Sequence record: PV682947.1
Strand: one strand, 5' to 3'
DNA from: Escherichia phage WPEC4
Length of the DNA: 64,000 nt
Shown: positions 188 to 21,387 of the stretch, one piece after another
Layout of the letters: every line of letters begins with the position of its first letter
Position numbering within the stretch: the stretch's first letter is position 1
Made by a program: the position numbers and the translations under genes
The notes under the pieces: model-generated
The model's input: only the letters and a program-made list of their open reading frames with translations
Told to the model about the DNA's origin: nothing
Database searches by the model: none

Positions 188-376
188 ATGGCACGTTTAG
201 CAGATAACCCTGTATTCTACCCCGTTCTTGATCTTTATGATGAATTGACATATGTTGTGGAGCGGTATAATTACAATGAAGACCTCTTGGAGACAAACCT
301 TAAAGTAGTTCTGATGAAAGCCTATCAGCAAGGGCAACGTGAAATTTTGGAGAGTATGAAAAATGCGAATAACTGA
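188..376 (+). CDS. hypothetical protein
   Basis: ATG 188 preceded by AAAGGAG; ORF-track frame 152..376 trimmed to the SD-supported start. Confidence 0.5.
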   Translation: MARLADNPVFYPVLDLYDELTYVVERYNYNEDLLETNLKVVLMKAYQQGQREILESMKNANN

Positions 377-905
377 TGATTATGTATTCTTCTTTTCACA
401 TAAAGATGTTTTTAGTAATTGGTATATTGCACCCTTTACAGAAACCGAACCAGGTTACAATGAGACTTTCTGTTGTGTTGAGCAATACATGATGTGGCGT
501 AAAGCTTTGCTTTTTAATGACCACAACACTGCACAGGCTATTCTGACTCATAGTTCGATACGGAAAGATGAGAAGATCCAAGCTTATTACAAACGTATGG
601 GTAGGGCAGTGTCGGATTTTGATAACAATGTATGGGAAGAGAACCGTGAGCGTATTGTTATGCGAGGTTTATGCTTGAAATATGTACAGAATCCAGATTT
701 GTATGCAGACTTACACCTTTACCAATACAAAACGTTTGTTGAAGCAAGCCCCTACGATAAGGTTTACGGAATTGGAATGGGGATGTATGAACCAGGGGTG
801 CTAAACCCTGCCACCTGGAAAGGGCAGAATCTTTTAGGTAAATATCATAATAAACTGATCGAAATACTATTCCCAGACAAAATACCGCAAAGACGATATT
901 TGTGA
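363..905 (+). CDS. NADAR (YbiA-like) domain protein
   Basis: ORF track; motifs WYIAPF...EQYMMWRKA...EASPYDKVYGIGMG typical of NADAR/DUF1768; start overlaps upstream stop. Confidence 0.65.
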   Translation: MRITDDYVFFFSHKDVFSNWYIAPFTETEPGYNETFCCVEQYMMWRKALLFNDHNTAQAILTHSSIRKDEKIQAYYKRMGRAVSDFDNNVWEENRERIVMRGLCLKYVQNPDLYADLHLYQYKTFVEASPYDKVYGIGMGMYEPGVLNPATWKGQNLLGKYHNKLIEILFPDKIPQRRYL

Positions 906-960
906 TATTTTAACTTTTTTCATTTTTAGAACAAAGGTGTCACTTTGTAGCACAGAAATA

Positions 961-996
961 AGGCTCCTACAGCACCGTAGAGAGCCTGTTATTTTG
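961..996 (+). terminator. putative intrinsic terminator
   Basis: Inverted repeat AGGCTCCTAC/GTAGAGAGCCT followed by T-rich tract. Confidence 0.35.
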
Positions 997-1019
997 TCCT
1001 ATACAAACCCTTGTCTTTT

Positions 1020-1470
1020 TCAGTTTGCATCGCTAGGATTCGATCTAGGTGGGTTCCTGAAGGTCTACCAATAAGATTAAAGGTTATCTCAAATTTCCAC
1101 TACCTATTATCTCAAAAATCCCTCAAATTATTTAAACTTTTTAAGAATTTACAAAAGTGAAAGTTGAAAACCAAAATTTAAAGTTTAGGAAAATTATCTT
1201 AAAATGTTAGATACAAAACAAAACTCAAAAGTCAAGGAAAATTTTAAAAATTTTGCGCGCCCACAGTATTTAAAGTTTTTTTGCTTTTACAAAAATGAAA
1301 GTACAAAAGCAAAATTTAAAGTTTACAAAAATTTATGCAGGTGGGAATGAGAAGAGTTCTCATGTGGAAATGCAAATGAGAATGATTCGCATTTAAGTTT
1401 ATAAATGAGATTGATTCTTATTCAATAAGGTAAATGATAATCATTCTCATTTAGAGAATGACGCGCAGGG
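1020..1470. repeat. AT-rich noncoding repeat region (candidate replication origin/regulatory hub)
   Basis: Two ~46-bp direct repeats (~1148-1195, ~1285-1335); cluster of ATGAGA/TCTCAT-type hexamers 1340-1460 incl. Fur-box-like GATAATCATTCTC; TTTCCAC DnaA-box-like motifs. Confidence 0.4.
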
Positions 1471-1710
1471 GCGGTGTTTGTCTCGCGCTCCCGTGTCCCC
1501 TCGCCATGTAATAAGAATAACAGATCCAGCCAGGAAAGCAAGTGATTATTTTATCTTTACATTTCTTTACAAATATATAGCGCCCAGCCTACCGGCGATC
1601 AACCTTCCAACCAGTGCCCCTGGTATGTTAGCCCCGCCTTTACGCCGTGGGGTGGCGCTTCCTCTTCTGTATGTAAAACAGTATAAGCCCGATCCCTGGG
1701 CTTGTCAAGA

Positions 1711-18714: not shown

Positions 18715-19390
18715 AACAGTTTTGTCTATGTTTGACGGATCTGGGATCATGGTGTTACGTTATGCCGAAGCAGGTCACAAGTGTTTTTGTGTAAACGCTG
18801 ATGAAGGGGATCACGGTAAATACGAGGTTAGGATGGAGCACCCAAACATAACCTATGTGAATGCCTGGATAGATTCTACATTCAACCCTGAAGATCATGG
18901 AATACCTAAACCCGATATTATTTTTGGATTTCCACCTTGCACTATGTTAGCAGGTAGTGGTAGCAAACACGAACGCAGCACAGAGGAATTGGATGAAGCT
19001 TTAGCTAATATTCGTGTAGTGGAAGCTTTGGGTAACAAATATAATGTTCCTTGGATGATTGAGAACCCAGTAGGTAAACTTTCAACCTTATGGCGTAAAC
19101 CCGATTTTTACTTTGATCCTTATGAGTATGGTGGGTATTTGTTTGAAGAGGAAGGAAGCTTTCATCCTAAAATGCCTACCCGTGATGGGTATACAAAGAA
19201 AACTTGTATTTGGCACGGCAATGGTTTTGTTCAACCAGTGAAGAAACCAGTAGATCATATAGGCTGCTTCTGGGGTTGGAAAAGCTTAGGTGGAGCTAGT
19301 GCAAAAACAAAACAACTTAGATCACTAACCGCACGTGGTTTTGCTCGTGCAGTGTTTTTGTCTAACAATCTTCTAGATAAGGAGAAATAA
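18707..19390 (+). CDS. C5 cytosine methyltransferase-like protein (short form)
   Basis: ATG 18707 after GGAGGGG; motifs FDGSG (I), FPPC (IV), ENPVG (VI); only ~227 aa, no obvious target-recognition domain. Confidence 0.45.
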   Translation: MSKTVLSMFDGSGIMVLRYAEAGHKCFCVNADEGDHGKYEVRMEHPNITYVNAWIDSTFNPEDHGIPKPDIIFGFPPCTMLAGSGSKHERSTEELDEALANIRVVEALGNKYNVPWMIENPVGKLSTLWRKPDFYFDPYEYGGYLFEEEGSFHPKMPTRDGYTKKTCIWHGNGFVQPVKKPVDHIGCFWGWKSLGGASAKTKQLRSLTARGFARAVFLSNNLLDKEK

Positions 19391-20043
19391 TGTCAAATTC
19401 AAAACCAGTGGTTGCTTATCAAGTAGATCGTAATGATGGTGAAGGAAGTGTTGTTATTTTCAGTACACACGGTCTTGAGGCTCGTCGAAAAGGTGCATAT
19501 CGTTTAGAATGTGAGTTTGAAGACTGCACAAGCCACCGTGTCAAACAATTCGATCAATATGCTGATAAAGGCTTCGTCCCTATCAAAGCGTTACTGGAAG
19601 ATGGTTGGTGGGTATATTCTGCTTTTGATTACTCAAAACTGGAGGAGTCAGCTTCGTGCGCCTCCGAGATCGAATATGATGATTACTATGACACTCTATA
19701 CCTTCCAGAATGGCTTGTCTTTTCTCCTGATGAAAGAAGTGTCTGGAAAACGTGGGAAGAAATGGAGAGACATGCGTATAGCATCAATGAAGCTTTAGAT
19801 CGTAAAGCTTGGTTTATTGAGGCAGTAAAGGCGGCATACCCCCAATTCTCATTCTGTGATTTCACTGGTGGCCCAGGATACATTACACATACAGCCTCTT
19901 TTGAGTTTCCTGGTTCACGTTATAAGGGTAATGTTTATTGGGACTGGGATGAAAATAAACAACCTTCGGCTCAAGACTTCCGTTGCTATGTTTGTCAAGG
20001 CGATCAAGAAGCCCTTGACAAATACCTACAAAGTCTGGTATAG
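19390..20043 (+). CDS. hypothetical protein
   Basis: ORF track; SD AAGGAGAAA. Confidence 0.5.
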   Translation: MSNSKPVVAYQVDRNDGEGSVVIFSTHGLEARRKGAYRLECEFEDCTSHRVKQFDQYADKGFVPIKALLEDGWWVYSAFDYSKLEESASCASEIEYDDYYDTLYLPEWLVFSPDERSVWKTWEEMERHAYSINEALDRKAWFIEAVKAAYPQFSFCDFTGGPGYITHTASFEFPGSRYKGNVYWDWDENKQPSAQDFRCYVCQGDQEALDKYLQSLV

Positions 20044-20060
20044 TGCCGATATCTGAACAA

Positions 20061-20089
20061 AGCCTCCTGTTTCAGGGGGCTTTTCTTTT
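20061..20089 (+). terminator. rho-independent terminator
   Basis: AGCCTCCTG-TTTC-AGGGGGCT followed by TTTCTTTT. Confidence 0.6.
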
Positions 20090-20101
20090 ATAGGAGGGAA
20101 T

Positions 20102-20587
20102 ATGTTTCAAGTAAATGTCAATGTGCATAATAGTTACTCTGATTGTGAAACGTGTGGCTATAATTCATCTAATGTTATTCGTATTAGTGGCGATTTAGGA
20201 GAAGCTTCTTTTGGAGAAGAAGCAAGTTGCTTTAGTGGTATGGATGCAGAATGGAATGATATTGCACATTGGTTAGTGAGCAAACTAAAAGAAAAAGAGA
20301 AACCATTTCCTACTCTGCTTGATCGTTCTCTTGTGGAAGATGCAGGTAAAGCATATGCAGACTATGCGTATGCAGACGGGAAATATTTGGAAGATGATAA
20401 GGCTAACCATTTGCTTTATGTTTACTATGAAGCTGAATCTGCCTACGATAATTATTACAGCATGTCTAACATCCTACGTCTGTTTGCAGAGTTTGATATT
20501 TATTTCGAAGTAGAATTTTCAGAAGATGATACTTACGAGTACAATTCTTATGATCCATTTGAGGAGGAAGAATGCCAAGACGAGTAA
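20102..20587 (+). CDS. hypothetical acidic protein
   Basis: ORF track; SD GGAGGGAA. Confidence 0.5.
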   Translation: MFQVNVNVHNSYSDCETCGYNSSNVIRISGDLGEASFGEEASCFSGMDAEWNDIAHWLVSKLKEKEKPFPTLLDRSLVEDAGKAYADYAYADGKYLEDDKANHLLYVYYEAESAYDNYYSMSNILRLFAEFDIYFEVEFSEDDTYEYNSYDPFEEEECQDE

Positions 20588-21387
20588 TTTTTGTAAGCGG
20601 TGCAGGTTTAAGCGCAGACAGTGGGATTCGAACATTTAGAACAGACACAGATAGTGGTCGTGCTTTATGGGAAGAATATGATTTAGAAGAGGTCTGCGAT
20701 ATTGGAGCTTTCCAAGCAGGTTATCGTGTTAGAACATCTCCAGATCTTCCAGTGGTCGGTGGTGTAGACGAGAACGGTATGGATTTGTATGCCAAAACAC
20801 ACGAATTTTATAACAAAAGACGTGTTGAGCTTAAAGATGTACAACCTAATGCTGCACATATTCAAATAGCAAAGTGGTTTAAGGAATATCCTAACCAAAT
20901 AGTAAACTTGACAACAAACGTTGATGATCTACTAGAGCGAGCAGGTGTAGACAGAGATTCTGTTATTCACGTACACGGATATCTTCCTGAAGTAGTTTAC
21001 CGTATGCATCCTGGAGATTACAAAACACTGGTAGATATTGGTTACAATAGTATAAACATAGATGATTATAACTGGGTGAAGCCTAATGTTGTATTTTTTG
21101 GTGAGGCTGCACCTTTGTATGCAGATATGGCTCACTTGTTCGATACTTTGACCATGCAAGATTTGGTTGTAGTAGTAGGATGTTCAAACCAAGTTATCAA
21201 TTTTAATTGGGAATTATTTCCTGCACTTAGTATGGGTACAAAAATGGTTGTAGTTAACCCTGGAGTTAATTACGAAGAAACACTTCTCTATGAAGATCGT
21301 GGAGTTTTTGTTTACCGAGAAAAAGCTGCAACAGCCTTCAGCAATGAAGGTTTCATTAAAATGGTCGAAGACCACTTAAACAAATAA
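20572..21387 (+). CDS. SIR2-family NAD-dependent deacetylase-like protein
   Basis: GAGLSADSGIRTFR, QPNAAH, TTNVDDL and VHG motifs; SD GAGGAGG. Confidence 0.75.
   Translation: MPRRVIFVSGAGLSADSGIRTFRTDTDSGRALWEEYDLEEVCDIGAFQAGYRVRTSPDLPVVGGVDENGMDLYAKTHEFYNKRRVELKDVQPNAAHIQIAKWFKEYPNQIVNLTTNVDDLLERAGVDRDSVIHVHGYLPEVVYRMHPGDYKTLVDIGYNSINIDDYNWVKPNVVFFGEAAPLYADMAHLFDTLTMQDLVVVVGCSNQVINFNWELFPALSMGTKMVVVNPGVNYEETLLYEDRGVFVYREKAATAFSNEGFIKMVEDHLNK

Follow-up and report, generated by a model that had tools for sequence, protein, structure and literature searches.

A NADAR protein predicted to counter DarTG1 and four further accessory enzymes in an apparently misassembled Phapecoctavirus genome

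Introduction

For one of the enzyme families considered here a role in phage defence has been tested directly. AdfN(Bas60) neutralises the DarT1 toxin and restores the plating of three phages on DarTG1 (Nat Commun 2025, PMC11825919). Members of the same family do not all have to serve in conflict: YbiA-type NADARs of E. coli can be housekeeping enzymes, and guanine-ADP-ribose is also hydrolysed in vitro by YbiA-family NADARs (PMC11125620). In the BASEL collection AdfN(Bas60) carries the label 'YbiA-like N-glycosidase'. For the main viral sirtuin clade a role in RNA repair was proposed from the gene neighbourhoods in rV5, Mydo, Serratia BF and SP15, and in the same work it was argued that phage SLOG, NADAR and Macro domains counter mainly soluble ADP-ribose derivatives (Iyer et al. 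2022, PMC9503650).

We analysed a stretch of 64,000 nucleotides from Escherichia phage WPEC4 (PV682947.1), referred to below as the window. A preliminary description had placed five enzymes (NADAR, Ser/Thr phosphatase, DprA-like, C5-methyltransferase-like and SIR2) in one contiguous early-type region on the plus strand at 363-21387 and had suggested that SIR2 and NADAR act against NAD- or ADP-ribosylation-based defence.

Results

Identity and layout of the window

Judged by its sequence, the window phage is an E. coli myophage of the Phapecoctavirus type (Stephanstirmvirinae), and 13.6-22 kb show 99% identity to Schickermooser and Mt1B1_P17. All five genes are present, four of them where they had first been reported; the DprA-like gene, for which no position had been given, lies at 14965-15546. 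They are genuine accessory genes and are conserved in a group of E. coli phages that is well sequenced. RefSeq already labels identical or near-identical proteins Sir2, NinI-like phosphatase, DprA-like and DNA methyltransferase, and the assignments are not novel as the GenBank annotation already names the proteins in this way.

Between the contig with the NADAR gene and the contig with the phosphatase-to-SIR2 block we found a scramble (6938-13579, no strand) of ∼77-nt modules jumbled in both orientations. Internally recurring 40-mers cover 99.9% of this segment compared to 0% of three control regions. The modules recur with periods of 77, 155 and 149 nt (96-100% identity; 100% for the 77-nt tandem periods), and half of the segment consists of copies of the flanks of four breakpoints (6937, 13580, 39410 and 62576). 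It contains no open reading frame above 137 aa. Collinearity with Schickermooser stops exactly at 13580 and 39411, one segment is inverted and 8.7 kb are missing; WPEC6, a related GenBank record, contains a comparable jumble in another arrangement. These patterns, which are patterns in the sequence and not in reads, look like k-mer-sized assembly debris, and the comparison identifies the window as a misassembled Phapecoctavirus genome.

In Schickermooser the plus strand carries the NADAR gene at 136.1 kb and the minus strand carries SIR2 at 18.8 kb; in related genomes the two are ∼33 kb apart on opposite strands. Only 13.6-21.7 kb form a genuine collinear plus-strand block, which in related genomes is co-directional with the nucleotide-metabolism genes NrdAB, ThyX and PhoH. 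As the sequence that joins them in the window is an assembly artefact, the five enzymes do not belong to one region: the real genome has them at two or more unrelated sites, and the adjacency of NADAR to the phosphatase-to-SIR2 block is produced by the assembly. A single early island including NADAR rests on the misassembled junction, and one contiguous early-type region at 363-21387 was not confirmed.

The NADAR gene

The gene at 363-905 (plus strand) encodes a NADAR-domain protein of the YbiA-subfamily type and an orthologue of AdfN(Bas60). It matches Pfam NADAR with 1.1e-35 (123.8 bits, cut-off 35.1), passes TIGR02464 'riboflavin intermediates N-glycosidase' with 113.5 bits (cut-off 73.7) and aligns to PDB 8bau (8e-15) and to bas60_0111 with 58% identity over 172 residues (6e-68). 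E40, K47, K77, R81, W91, R95, E127, D132 and Y135, which correspond to the ADP-ribose contacts of the P. nicotianae NADAR, are all kept, and the Glu of the last strand is of the YbiA-subfamily type. The protein would be an orphan-antitoxin-type DNA ADP-ribosylglycohydrolase, which would defeat the DarTG1 toxin-antitoxin defence by freeing the guanines of phage DNA from ADP-ribose. Orthology and residue conservation suggest that it most likely counters DarTG1 as the tested protein does. Of the five enzymes, NADAR alone has a relative that was tested as an anti-defence factor, and the experiments already published on this orthologue support the anti-DarTG reading.

The phosphatase-to-SIR2 block

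The first enzyme of the block (13906-14649, plus strand) is a PPP-family Ser/Thr phosphatase of the lambda-phosphatase/NinI type. It was assigned by Pfam Metallophos (2.7e-13), phrog_246 (2e-75) and a full-length match to lambda phosphatase (PDB 1g5b, 5.5e-27); all five motifs (GDLHG, GDLTDRG, GNHE, HGG and GHS) are kept and the dimetal site is intact. A 102-aa protein (p102; 14649-14957, plus strand), for which the Pfam search gave no match, separates it from the SLOG gene, and homologues sit between the same two genes also in distant phage lineages (loci L045 and L056). The SLOG gene (14965-15546, plus strand) matches phrog_768 'DprA-like' with 2e-62 and stays under the Pfam threshold. Its product is a stand-alone SLOG/DprA-type Rossmann domain protein that would bind nucleotides. 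The earlier label 'DprA-like' is valid at the level of the fold only, for one SLOG domain, as the other DprA domains are absent.

A protein with DUF7277 and DUF7275 domains (17376-18317, plus strand; Pfam 1.7e-13 and 7.5e-76, respectively) opens the unit that contains the methyltransferase-like gene, and is co-located with that gene and SIR2 in L014-L016, L050 and L056. The methyltransferase-like gene (18707-19390, plus strand) encodes a minimal C5-cytosine-methyltransferase-like protein of 227 aa that matches phrog_757 'DNA methyltransferase' with 7e-85. Motifs I, IV and VI and the C5-methyltransferase fold are present, including the cofactor and catalytic-cysteine motifs; the position before the Cys is variable, with P, D or S. 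It had been described as short and lacking an obvious target-recognition domain. Motifs and fold agree with this family, but the protein falls below the threshold of Pfam PF00145 and a short conserved insert occupies the site in question.

The most persistent upstream neighbour of SIR2 is a 217-aa protein (p217; 19390-20043, plus strand), which has no match in Pfam or PDB. It precedes SIR2 in 10 of 58 loci, including loci with a SIR2 that is only ∼51-53% identical. A very acidic 161-aa protein (p161; 20102-20587, plus strand; pI 4.05) follows, with a stop codon that overlaps the start of SIR2 by 16 nt; its homologues precede SIR2 only in L012, L013, L015, L016 and L017.

SIR2 (20572-21387, plus strand) is a CobB-like sirtuin and belongs to a phage clade lacking the zinc module; members occur in 983 phage records, including T5-like and rV5-like phages. 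We obtained 1.9e-22 for Pfam SIR2 (80.5 bits, cut-off 24) and 7.6e-19 for CobB (PDB 1s5p), and CobB deacylases are the closest solved relatives. Its score of 106 against a CobB equivalog cut-off of 243 is far from sufficient, as for all CobB equivalog cut-offs. GAGLS10-14, F22, R23, N116, D118 and H135 are invariant in the clade, and the protein retains its NAD-binding residues and the catalytic His, Asn and Asp. There are only two Cys and hence no Cys4 site, and T115 takes the place of the canonical Gln. We found no match to the defence-type SIR2 models of PADLOC, and across loci the neighbours are lineage-specific only with no conserved partner.

Overall the NADAR, phosphatase and SIR2 families were confirmed, as all three score above the curated profile cut-offs and have retained their catalytic residues. 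The phosphatase, SLOG, methyltransferase-like and SIR2 proteins are probably active enzymes, whose substrates in the early or middle phase of infection would be macromolecules or nucleotides of host or phage.

Transcription signals

The stretch from 13.6 to 21.7 kb can be read as a co-directional series of short units, several of which would have sigma-70-like promoters and hairpin terminators. The p161-SIR2 unit, which has two genes, starts at a sigma-70-like promoter (TTGACA-18-TATAGT with TG) that overlaps a terminator-like hairpin (20015-20083, plus strand), and ends at a terminator-like hairpin (21395-21412, plus strand); terminators are annotated in Schickermooser at both equivalent places. 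Upstream of the DUF7275 gene there is a terminator (17294-17311) and a promoter-like site (17317-17345). Promoter-like sites are not enriched overall, with 28 found compared to 24.1 expected from shuffles. Early expression of the block from sigma-70-like promoters is plausible.

Discussion

We conclude, with a probability of roughly 75%, that the window is a misassembled Phapecoctavirus sequence in which all five enzymes are encoded by ordinary accessory genes conserved by vertical descent, the NADAR protein acting against DarTG1 and the other four forming no demonstrated island. The suggestion that both SIR2 and NADAR are directed against NAD- or ADP-ribosylation-based defence is supported for NADAR, through AdfN(Bas60), and not supported for SIR2, which is CobB-like; neither the PADLOC models nor the neighbour comparison gave evidence for SIR2 as an NAD manipulator or as a counter to SIR2 or Thoeris systems.

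The phosphatase-to-SIR2 block is not a demonstrated anti-defence island, and we consider it improbable that 13.9-21.4 kb function as one. NAD-derived signals or ADP-ribose adducts made by Thoeris-, DSR- or other SIR2/TIR-type defences would then be the targets of SLOG and the sirtuin, through binding, degradation or consumption, and the phosphatase and the methyltransferase-like enzyme would disarm other systems. The argument of Iyer et al. points in this direction, as do the strong sigma-70-like promoter upstream of p161-SIR2 and the acidity of p161, which resembles many anti-defence proteins. The sub-blocks phosphatase-p102-SLOG and DUF7275-methyltransferase-p217-SIR2 also stay adjacent in lineages in which SIR2 is ∼51-53% identical, even after one of them was inverted; this could reflect functional linkage rather than inheritance alone and counts against ordinary accessory genes. 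On the other hand SIR2 matches no PADLOC model, and the T5-like and rV5-like sirtuins have wholly different neighbourhoods with no shared partner, profile-profile comparison included. The methyltransferase-like gene occurs solo elsewhere and is missing from the phi92-like block, according to the BASEL data restriction-modification systems act unusually strongly on these phages, and we found no experimental link for the phosphatase, SLOG, methyltransferase-like or SIR2 gene.

It is also unlikely that the enzymes are metabolic or housekeeping helpers that take no part in conflict. In this case NADAR would remove reactive intermediates of the riboflavin pathway like E. coli YbiA, which would fit its TIGR02464 score and its YbiA-type Glu, and the sirtuin would be a deacylase of host or phage proteins like CobB, its closest solved relative. 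The phosphatase would reset host phosphoproteins, and methylation of phage DNA by the methyltransferase-like protein would serve packaging or regulation. The orientation shared with NrdAB, ThyX and PhoH agrees with this. But AdfN(Bas60) neutralises DarT1 in spite of its YbiA-like label, YbiA-family NADARs act on guanine-ADP-ribose too, and the sirtuin is far below the CobB cut-off and has no zinc module of known deacylases.

A sirtuin that serves RNA repair and not NAD warfare seems to us quite doubtful. Like KptA/Tpt1 it would remove 2'-phosphates in an NAD-dependent manner from the RNA (tRNA) ends that host anticodon nucleases produce, in a step before that of the phage RNA ligase. This would follow the proposal for the viral clade, and in the rV5-like phage RudolfGeigy a 47%-identical sirtuin lies between RNA ligase and a MazG-like gene, beside polynucleotide kinase and phosphoesterase. 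With tblastn of the RudolfGeigy neighbours and Pfam we located the same genes in the window (50563-56304, minus strand): MazG-like, ATP DNA ligase, polynucleotide kinase, T4 Rnl1-like RNA ligase (RNA_lig_T4_1, 3.8e-15), calcineurin-like phosphoesterase and a 116-aa protein, with DNA_ligase_A_M, PRA-PH and Metallophos as further Pfam matches. In rV5-like phages the sirtuin is flanked by this cluster, but here the two are not linked (∼30 kb apart in the window, ∼27 kb by Schickermooser coordinates), and the sirtuin is not beside such genes in T5-like phages either. Furthermore the rV5-like sirtuin has two small proteins at its sides, and in the window these are found at the RNA ligase cluster and not at the sirtuin.

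Comparison with known systems

The phosphatase shares every PPP metal-binding motif with lambda NinI (1g5b). It differs from NinI and from E. coli PrpA and PrpB by an insertion of ∼25 residues, and from PrpA and PrpB also in falling under their equivalog cut-offs (94 compared to 326). The SLOG protein was compared with DprA and with other members of the superfamily (Moco carrier protein, LOG, ShosA and the SLOG of ThsA); it is a single 193-aa domain that lacks the SAM and C-terminal domains of DprA and the PGGxGT motif of LOG. M.HhaI, the prophage methyltransferase 3g7u and the catalytic domains of DNMT3A/B have 290-350 residues or more compared to 227 in the methyltransferase-like protein, in which a highly conserved insert of 60-75 residues replaces the variable target-recognition domain of C5-methyltransferases.

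With E. coli CobB and other class III/U sirtuins (1s5p, 6rxj) the window SIR2 shares the NAD-binding GAGxS and FR as well as the N-x-D, catalytic His-Gly, FGE and GxS motifs, but a Cys-free segment replaces the Cys4 zinc module and Thr the Gln of TQNID. At 46-60% identity to rV5-like and T5-like members it belongs to the viral clade of rV5, Mydo, SP15 and Serratia BF (PMC9503650), from which it differs in that the RNA-ligase/polynucleotide kinase/MazG neighbourhood is not beside it. AdfN(Bas60), the tested counterpart of the window NADAR, comes from the phi92-like phages Bas60-62 (bas60_0111, PaulScherrer), which belong to Justusliebigvirus and not to Phapecoctavirus, and 42% of the residues differ. 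Both proteins are of the same length class, share the catalytic Glu and Lys as well as the YbiA-type Glu, and stand alone with no DarT partner. Their genes also have the same position in the genome, at the end of a unit and ahead of a gene-poor stretch of ∼1 kb.

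Assembly of the record and gene arrangement

Megablast assigned the window to Phapecoctavirus (Stephanstirmvirinae), whose members are myophages of E. coli with genomes of ~150 kb. Positions 13.6-22 kb share ~99% identity with the related reference Schickermooser, with Mt1B1_P17 and with many others. For 1-6.9 kb the identity with those phages is ~94%, but the matching sequence lies elsewhere in their genomes. The preliminary description had treated 363-21387 as a single plus-strand early region with an anti-defence flavour. The genes and most of the family calls held up, whereas the contiguity of the region did not.

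The two parts are joined by 6938-13579, in which the longest ORF has at most 137 aa. This span is made up of ~77-nt modules, each present in 3 to 8 copies and in both orientations, with composite units of 149 to 162 nt and tandem periods of 77 nt at 100% identity. Recurring 40-mers cover 99.9% of it, compared to 0% of three control stretches of equal length. Half of the span consists of exact copies of the flanks of positions 6937, 13580, 39410/39411 and 62576, and collinearity with Schickermooser breaks exactly at two of these four positions, 13580 and 39411. Schickermooser 17804-34624 (locus L001) corresponds to window 13580-30440 and Schickermooser 1-9078 to window 48482-39411 in inverted order, so that 39411-48482 (NrdAB, ThyX, exonuclease) is inverted relative to the block running from the phosphatase to SIR2. 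The 8.7 kb between the two Schickermooser segments, with the rml genes, glutaredoxin, lysozyme, PhoH and HslV-like genes, are missing in the window. The Schickermooser match starts exactly at the annotated start of gp071 with module DNA directly upstream of 13580, and the gene upstream of the phosphatase appears to be cut at this position.

For reads of 150 nt the default k-mer series of SPAdes ends at 77, the unit length seen here, and 6938-13579 looks like k=77 assembly-graph debris that was joined into the record. The other explanation is a genuine repeat array. We rejected it because the units are exactly 77 nt long, are exact copies of breakpoint flanks found elsewhere in the window, truncate genes and occur in a different order in a sister record. 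The latter is WPEC6 (PV763039.1; Thailand), whose NADAR gene is 100% identical to that of the window. The same modules form a comparable jumble at the right end of WPEC6 (142000-155327), where dozens of tiny hypothetical proteins have been annotated, and the deposited WPEC6 genome probably carries the artefact too. A paper on a Thai Phapecoctavirus used SPAdes 3.15.0 and reported just 54.8% global identity to a close relative (PMC13096147), a value that would fit a contig-order problem of the same kind. From these sequence comparisons we conclude that the window apparently consists of contigs concatenated with k-mer-sized debris.

In Schickermooser the NADAR gene lies at 136,123-136,662 (+) and the SIR2 gene at 18,773-19,585 (-). 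The two are thus ~33 kb apart across the record ends, with an array of small early genes between them. The joining span is an artefact and unfit for biological mining, and the genome record needs to be re-assembled. We regard the identification of this artefact as the most useful by-product of the analysis.

Some further features of the record were noted. A TelA-like (toxic anion resistance) ORF was found at 62519-63685 (3.8e-33); its listed start is probably spurious, since breakpoint 62576 falls within its first 20 codons. At 28218-28895 (-), inside the small early-gene array of this virulent phage, a 225-aa ORF carries a serine-recombinase (Resolvase N-terminal) domain (5.4e-18). Rfam detected an eleventh tRNA at 60765-60849 (39 bits) inside the 60-62 kb tRNA cluster, which ARAGORN had not called.

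All five enzyme genes were present and annotated in public genomes beforehand, so their novelty is limited. Proteins with 94-100% identity to theirs have been deposited for dozens of Phapecoctavirus genomes, and several of these proteins already bear the label Sir2, NinI-like phosphatase, DprA-like or DNA methyltransferase. The RefSeq labels in Schickermooser are NinI-like serine-threonine phosphatase, DprA-like DNA recombination-mediator protein, DNA methyltransferase and Sir2 (NAD-dependent deacetylase). Approximately 19-25 records of the series MG0656xx ('Campylobacter phage A150, A145, C3, C13 ...') also match these coliphage genes, and four of them show 97.6% DNA identity to the phi92-like NADAR gene. 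The host labels or the sample purity of these records look doubtful.

Family assignments

The Ser/Thr phosphatase proposed for 13906-14649 was confirmed. It aligned over its full length with the lambda Ser/Thr phosphatase 1g5b (5.5e-27) and contains all metal-site motifs of the lambda-type PPP family (GDLHG, GDLTDRG, GNHE, HGG and GHS). The protein is NinI-type (phrog_246) and stays below the NCBIfam equivalog cut-offs for PrpA/PrpB (94.4 vs 326; 83.3 vs 332). A literature search returned nothing directly applicable that ties phage NinI-type phosphatases to anti-defence; a paper on a mycobacteriophage metallophosphoesterase deals with a nuclease-like protein (PMC12287305).

For the protein at 14965-15546 the DprA-like label was only partly right. 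It matched phrog_768 (2e-62) and shows the features of the SLOG superfamily: a Rossmannoid fold, a Gly-rich loop after strand 1 and a GGT-type motif. It is a stand-alone SLOG domain and no DprA recombination mediator: the Pfam DNA_processg_A score is below threshold (12.8 bits vs 29.6), and a profile of 25 homologues came up to DprA 3maj (E=0.014) by way of two motifs, GxGSR and RSGxAxGxD. A few of its homologues do carry PF02481. DprA combines a SAM, a Rossmann and a C-terminal winged-helix-like domain, whereas the model of this 193-aa protein has one Rossmann domain only, and just 135-146 residues of the DprA or ShosA chains (216-353 residues) align to it. In the proposal of Iyer et al. 2022, the SLOG domains of phages would sense or process derivatives of ADP-ribose (PMC9503650).

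The C5-methyltransferase-like protein (18707-19390) likewise gave a divided picture. The Pfam PF00145 score of 11.6 bits is below the cut-off of 22, and the family profile found no chain in PDB at E<=1. The family alignment nevertheless showed the three motifs of C5-cytosine DNA methyltransferases on a C5-methyltransferase fold: motif I as F9-D10-G11-S12-G13 (LFDGSG), motif IV as FPxCT with an invariant C78 and motif VI as E119-N120-P121 (ENPVGK; reference motif ENV). Motifs VIII and IX are separated by a conserved insert of 60-75 residues, followed by a C-terminal TKQLRSLTxRGFARAV that resembles motif IX; there is no clear motif X. The target-recognition domain of C5-methyltransferases is variable, whereas this insert is short and highly conserved. 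Homologues with 60-70% identity occur across widely differing phages and prophages, and at E<=1e-10 the family comprises 733 clusters (50% identity), nearly all of 200-260 aa. The protein is probably an active SAM-dependent enzyme with a catalytic cysteine, and DNA cytosine would be its likeliest substrate.

The SIR2-family call at 20572-21387 was well founded (Pfam 1.9e-22, 80.5 bits vs 24), with the E. coli CobB structures as the best solved relatives (7.6e-19). Across 16 members of the sirtuin clade GAGLS10-14, F22-R23, N116, D118, H135-G136, FFGE and GCS are kept, and G10-A11-G12, N116, D118 and H135 are invariant. In place of the Gln of TQNID the whole clade has Thr115. There are just two cysteines, C42 and C204, and the Cys4 zinc module is hence missing; the segment aligned to the CobB zinc region is Cys-free. 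The NCBIfam score for the CobB protein deacylase equivalog reached at best 106.3 compared to a cut-off of 243. The clade accounts for 983 phage records, with identities of 95-100% in Phapecoctavirus and Justusliebigvirus, 50-60% in T5-like, 46% in rV5-like, ~36% in KVP40-like and ~30% in jumbo phages.

The preliminary description had further suggested that this protein serves to manipulate NAD or ADP-ribosylation-based defence; we found no support for it as a NAD or anti-SIR2 weapon. None of the PADLOC defence SIR2 models matched it at E<=0.01, and we therefore rejected a defence-type SIR2 identity. As a stand-alone protein of 271 aa it is neither fused to nor paired with a sensor domain, unlike the ThsA, DSR1/2, SIR2-HerA and pAgo-SIR2 NADases. 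A literature search for functional work on phage sirtuins yielded nothing directly applicable. The sirtuin gene forms a two-gene unit with p161 (20102-20587), the genes overlapping by 16 nt and being translationally coupled. The 161-aa p161 product is very acidic (pI 4.05; 37 Asp+Glu vs 10 Lys+Arg), has an N-terminal CxxC and is confined to the Stephanstirmvirinae-like lineage. A near-consensus sigma-70-like promoter is predicted ahead of the unit, and a hairpin terminator on either side of it. Both the zinc-module-less sirtuin and the ~220-aa methyltransferase-like family are very widespread; they are reasonable wet-lab targets and no discovery of the window.

Gene neighbourhoods

We clustered all neighbours in 58 IMG/VR sirtuin loci and distinguished three lineage-specific sirtuin contexts. 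In the Stephanstirmvirinae-like group and in three more distant contigs (L045, L050 and L056; sirtuin 51-53% identical) two sub-blocks stay neighbours: phosphatase-p102-SLOG-p96, with p102 at 14649-14957, and DUF7275-MTase-like-p217-sirtuin, with p217 at 19390-20043. They remain adjacent although one of them is inverted. The methyltransferase-like gene is absent from the phi92-like block. In the phi92-like contig L013 (IMGVR_UViG_2974717474_000001) an unrelated 329-aa ORF at 2677-3666 replaces the DUF7275 and methyltransferase-like genes, and p217-p161-SIR2 is kept.

The retained adjacency fits shared ancestry and functional linkage alike. Under functional linkage, phosphatase-p102-SLOG and DUF7275-MTase-like-p217-(p161)-sirtuin would act as one counter-defence module, a reading suggested by sub-blocks that stay adjacent, despite one inversion, in lineages with ~51-53% identical sirtuins. 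By analogy with ShosA and the SLOG domain of ThsA, the SLOG protein would then be an orphan-antitoxin-like or signal-binding protein, and the zinc-module-less sirtuin, expressed early and acting together with the acidic p161, would spend NAD on modifying or disarming some part of the host's immunity and not on protein deacylation. With such a module, a sirtuin present in roughly a thousand sequenced phages, T5 included, would gain a function; the general idea of phage NADAR, SLOG and sirtuin domains in NAD/ADP-ribose conflicts was set out in 2022 (PMC9503650). We consider this reading improbable (probability of roughly 0.12). BLAST comparison of the block with the rV5-like and T5-like sirtuin neighbourhoods found the sirtuin alone in common. 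A conserved sirtuin partner was also sought with hhalign, by comparing the p217 and p161 families with the T5-like and rV5-like neighbour families of the 58 loci, and none emerged (probabilities at most 1.6%). The methyltransferase-like gene is a solo gene in two further settings that we examined for a partner, a 45-kb siphovirus-like contig and a Bdellovibrio prophage. As for the five genes as an island, the span that joins them is an assembly artefact. Of the earlier interpretation, the NADAR part is supported, on published evidence for an orthologue, and the island and the sirtuin weapon are unsupported.

PDB searches with the p217, DUF7277/7275 and methyltransferase-like family profiles gave nothing significant, lenient Pfam scans, run on members of the DUF7275 family and on the small ORFs of unknown function, yielded no match, and a literature search on DUF7275 function returned nothing directly applicable. 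The DUF7277+DUF7275 protein (17376-18317) starts with G5-S6 ... D26-x-D28, reminiscent of Pol-beta-type nucleotidyltransferases, and has invariant H115, H123, H132, H161, H183-D184 and H187, as an HD-type phosphohydrolase might; neither likeness was borne out by a profile or PDB match.

A KptA-like RNA-repair role of the sirtuin was inferred by Iyer et al. 2022 from rV5-type neighbourhoods (PMC9503650), in which it adjoins RNA ligase, nucleotide kinase, MazG, cREC or phosphoesterase genes. We confirmed this neighbourhood in the rV5-like phage RudolfGeigy. The window holds a complete rV5-type RNA-repair cluster at 50563-56304 (-), distant from the sirtuin at 20572-21387. It comprises a MazG-like PRA-PH, an ATP-dependent DNA ligase, a polynucleotide kinase, a T4 Rnl1-like RNA ligase, a calcineurin-like phosphoesterase and a 116-aa protein, and it is adjoined by an RdgC-like gene (49628-50506). 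In the window, the two small proteins found on either side of the sirtuin in rV5-like phages lie with the ligase cluster, apart from the sirtuin. T5-like phages have the sirtuin in yet another gene context.

The NADAR protein and its tested orthologue

The NADAR protein (363-905) scored well above the cut-offs of Pfam PF08719 (1.1e-35; 123.8 bits vs 35.1) and TIGR02464 (113.5 bits vs 73.7) and matched PDB 8bau at 8e-15. Residue roles are described for the P. nicotianae NADAR (Schuller et al. 2023, PMC11543638). The alignment paired E40/E43, K47/K50, K77/K75, R81/R79 and W91/W89, as well as R95/R93, E127/E125, D132/D130 and Y135/W133 (window/P. nicotianae). E40 and K47 are the catalytic Glu and Lys of the core helix of the superfamily. 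The YbiA subfamily is defined by Glu, not Asp or His, in the last strand (PMC11125620), and with E127 in this place the window protein is of the YbiA type. There is no ART gene nearby as in DarT1-NADAR operons; it is surrounded by small ORFs of unknown function and a gene-poor stretch, which makes the gene an orphan.

This gene-poor stretch of ~1.1 kb (905-2083) directly follows the NADAR gene. Motifs resembling AAATTTAAAGTTT are iterated in it, along with inverted repeats around 1340-1460, and phage tuntematon has 'repeat_region' features at the equivalent place. The stretch could be an origin or a genome terminus.

A role against ADP-ribosylation-based defence, as the preliminary description had it, is supported for the NADAR protein by AdfN(Bas60). 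Bas60, Bas61 and Bas62 are phi92-like phages, now in the sister genus Justusliebigvirus. In E. coli, AdfN(Bas60) neutralised DarT1. It also allowed the three phages RB69, T5 and Bas25 to plate again on DarTG1, though not on DarTG2 (PMC11825919). We located its gene as bas60_0111 (MZ501100.1, 82014-82565) and found the window protein to be an orthologue of this experimentally validated member. The anti-DarTG1 role of the orthologue was already published in 2025, and by this orthology the same role is well supported for the window protein, which would share it with a relative of 58% identity (6e-68) encoded at the equivalent position, where a unit ends and a gene-poor stretch follows.
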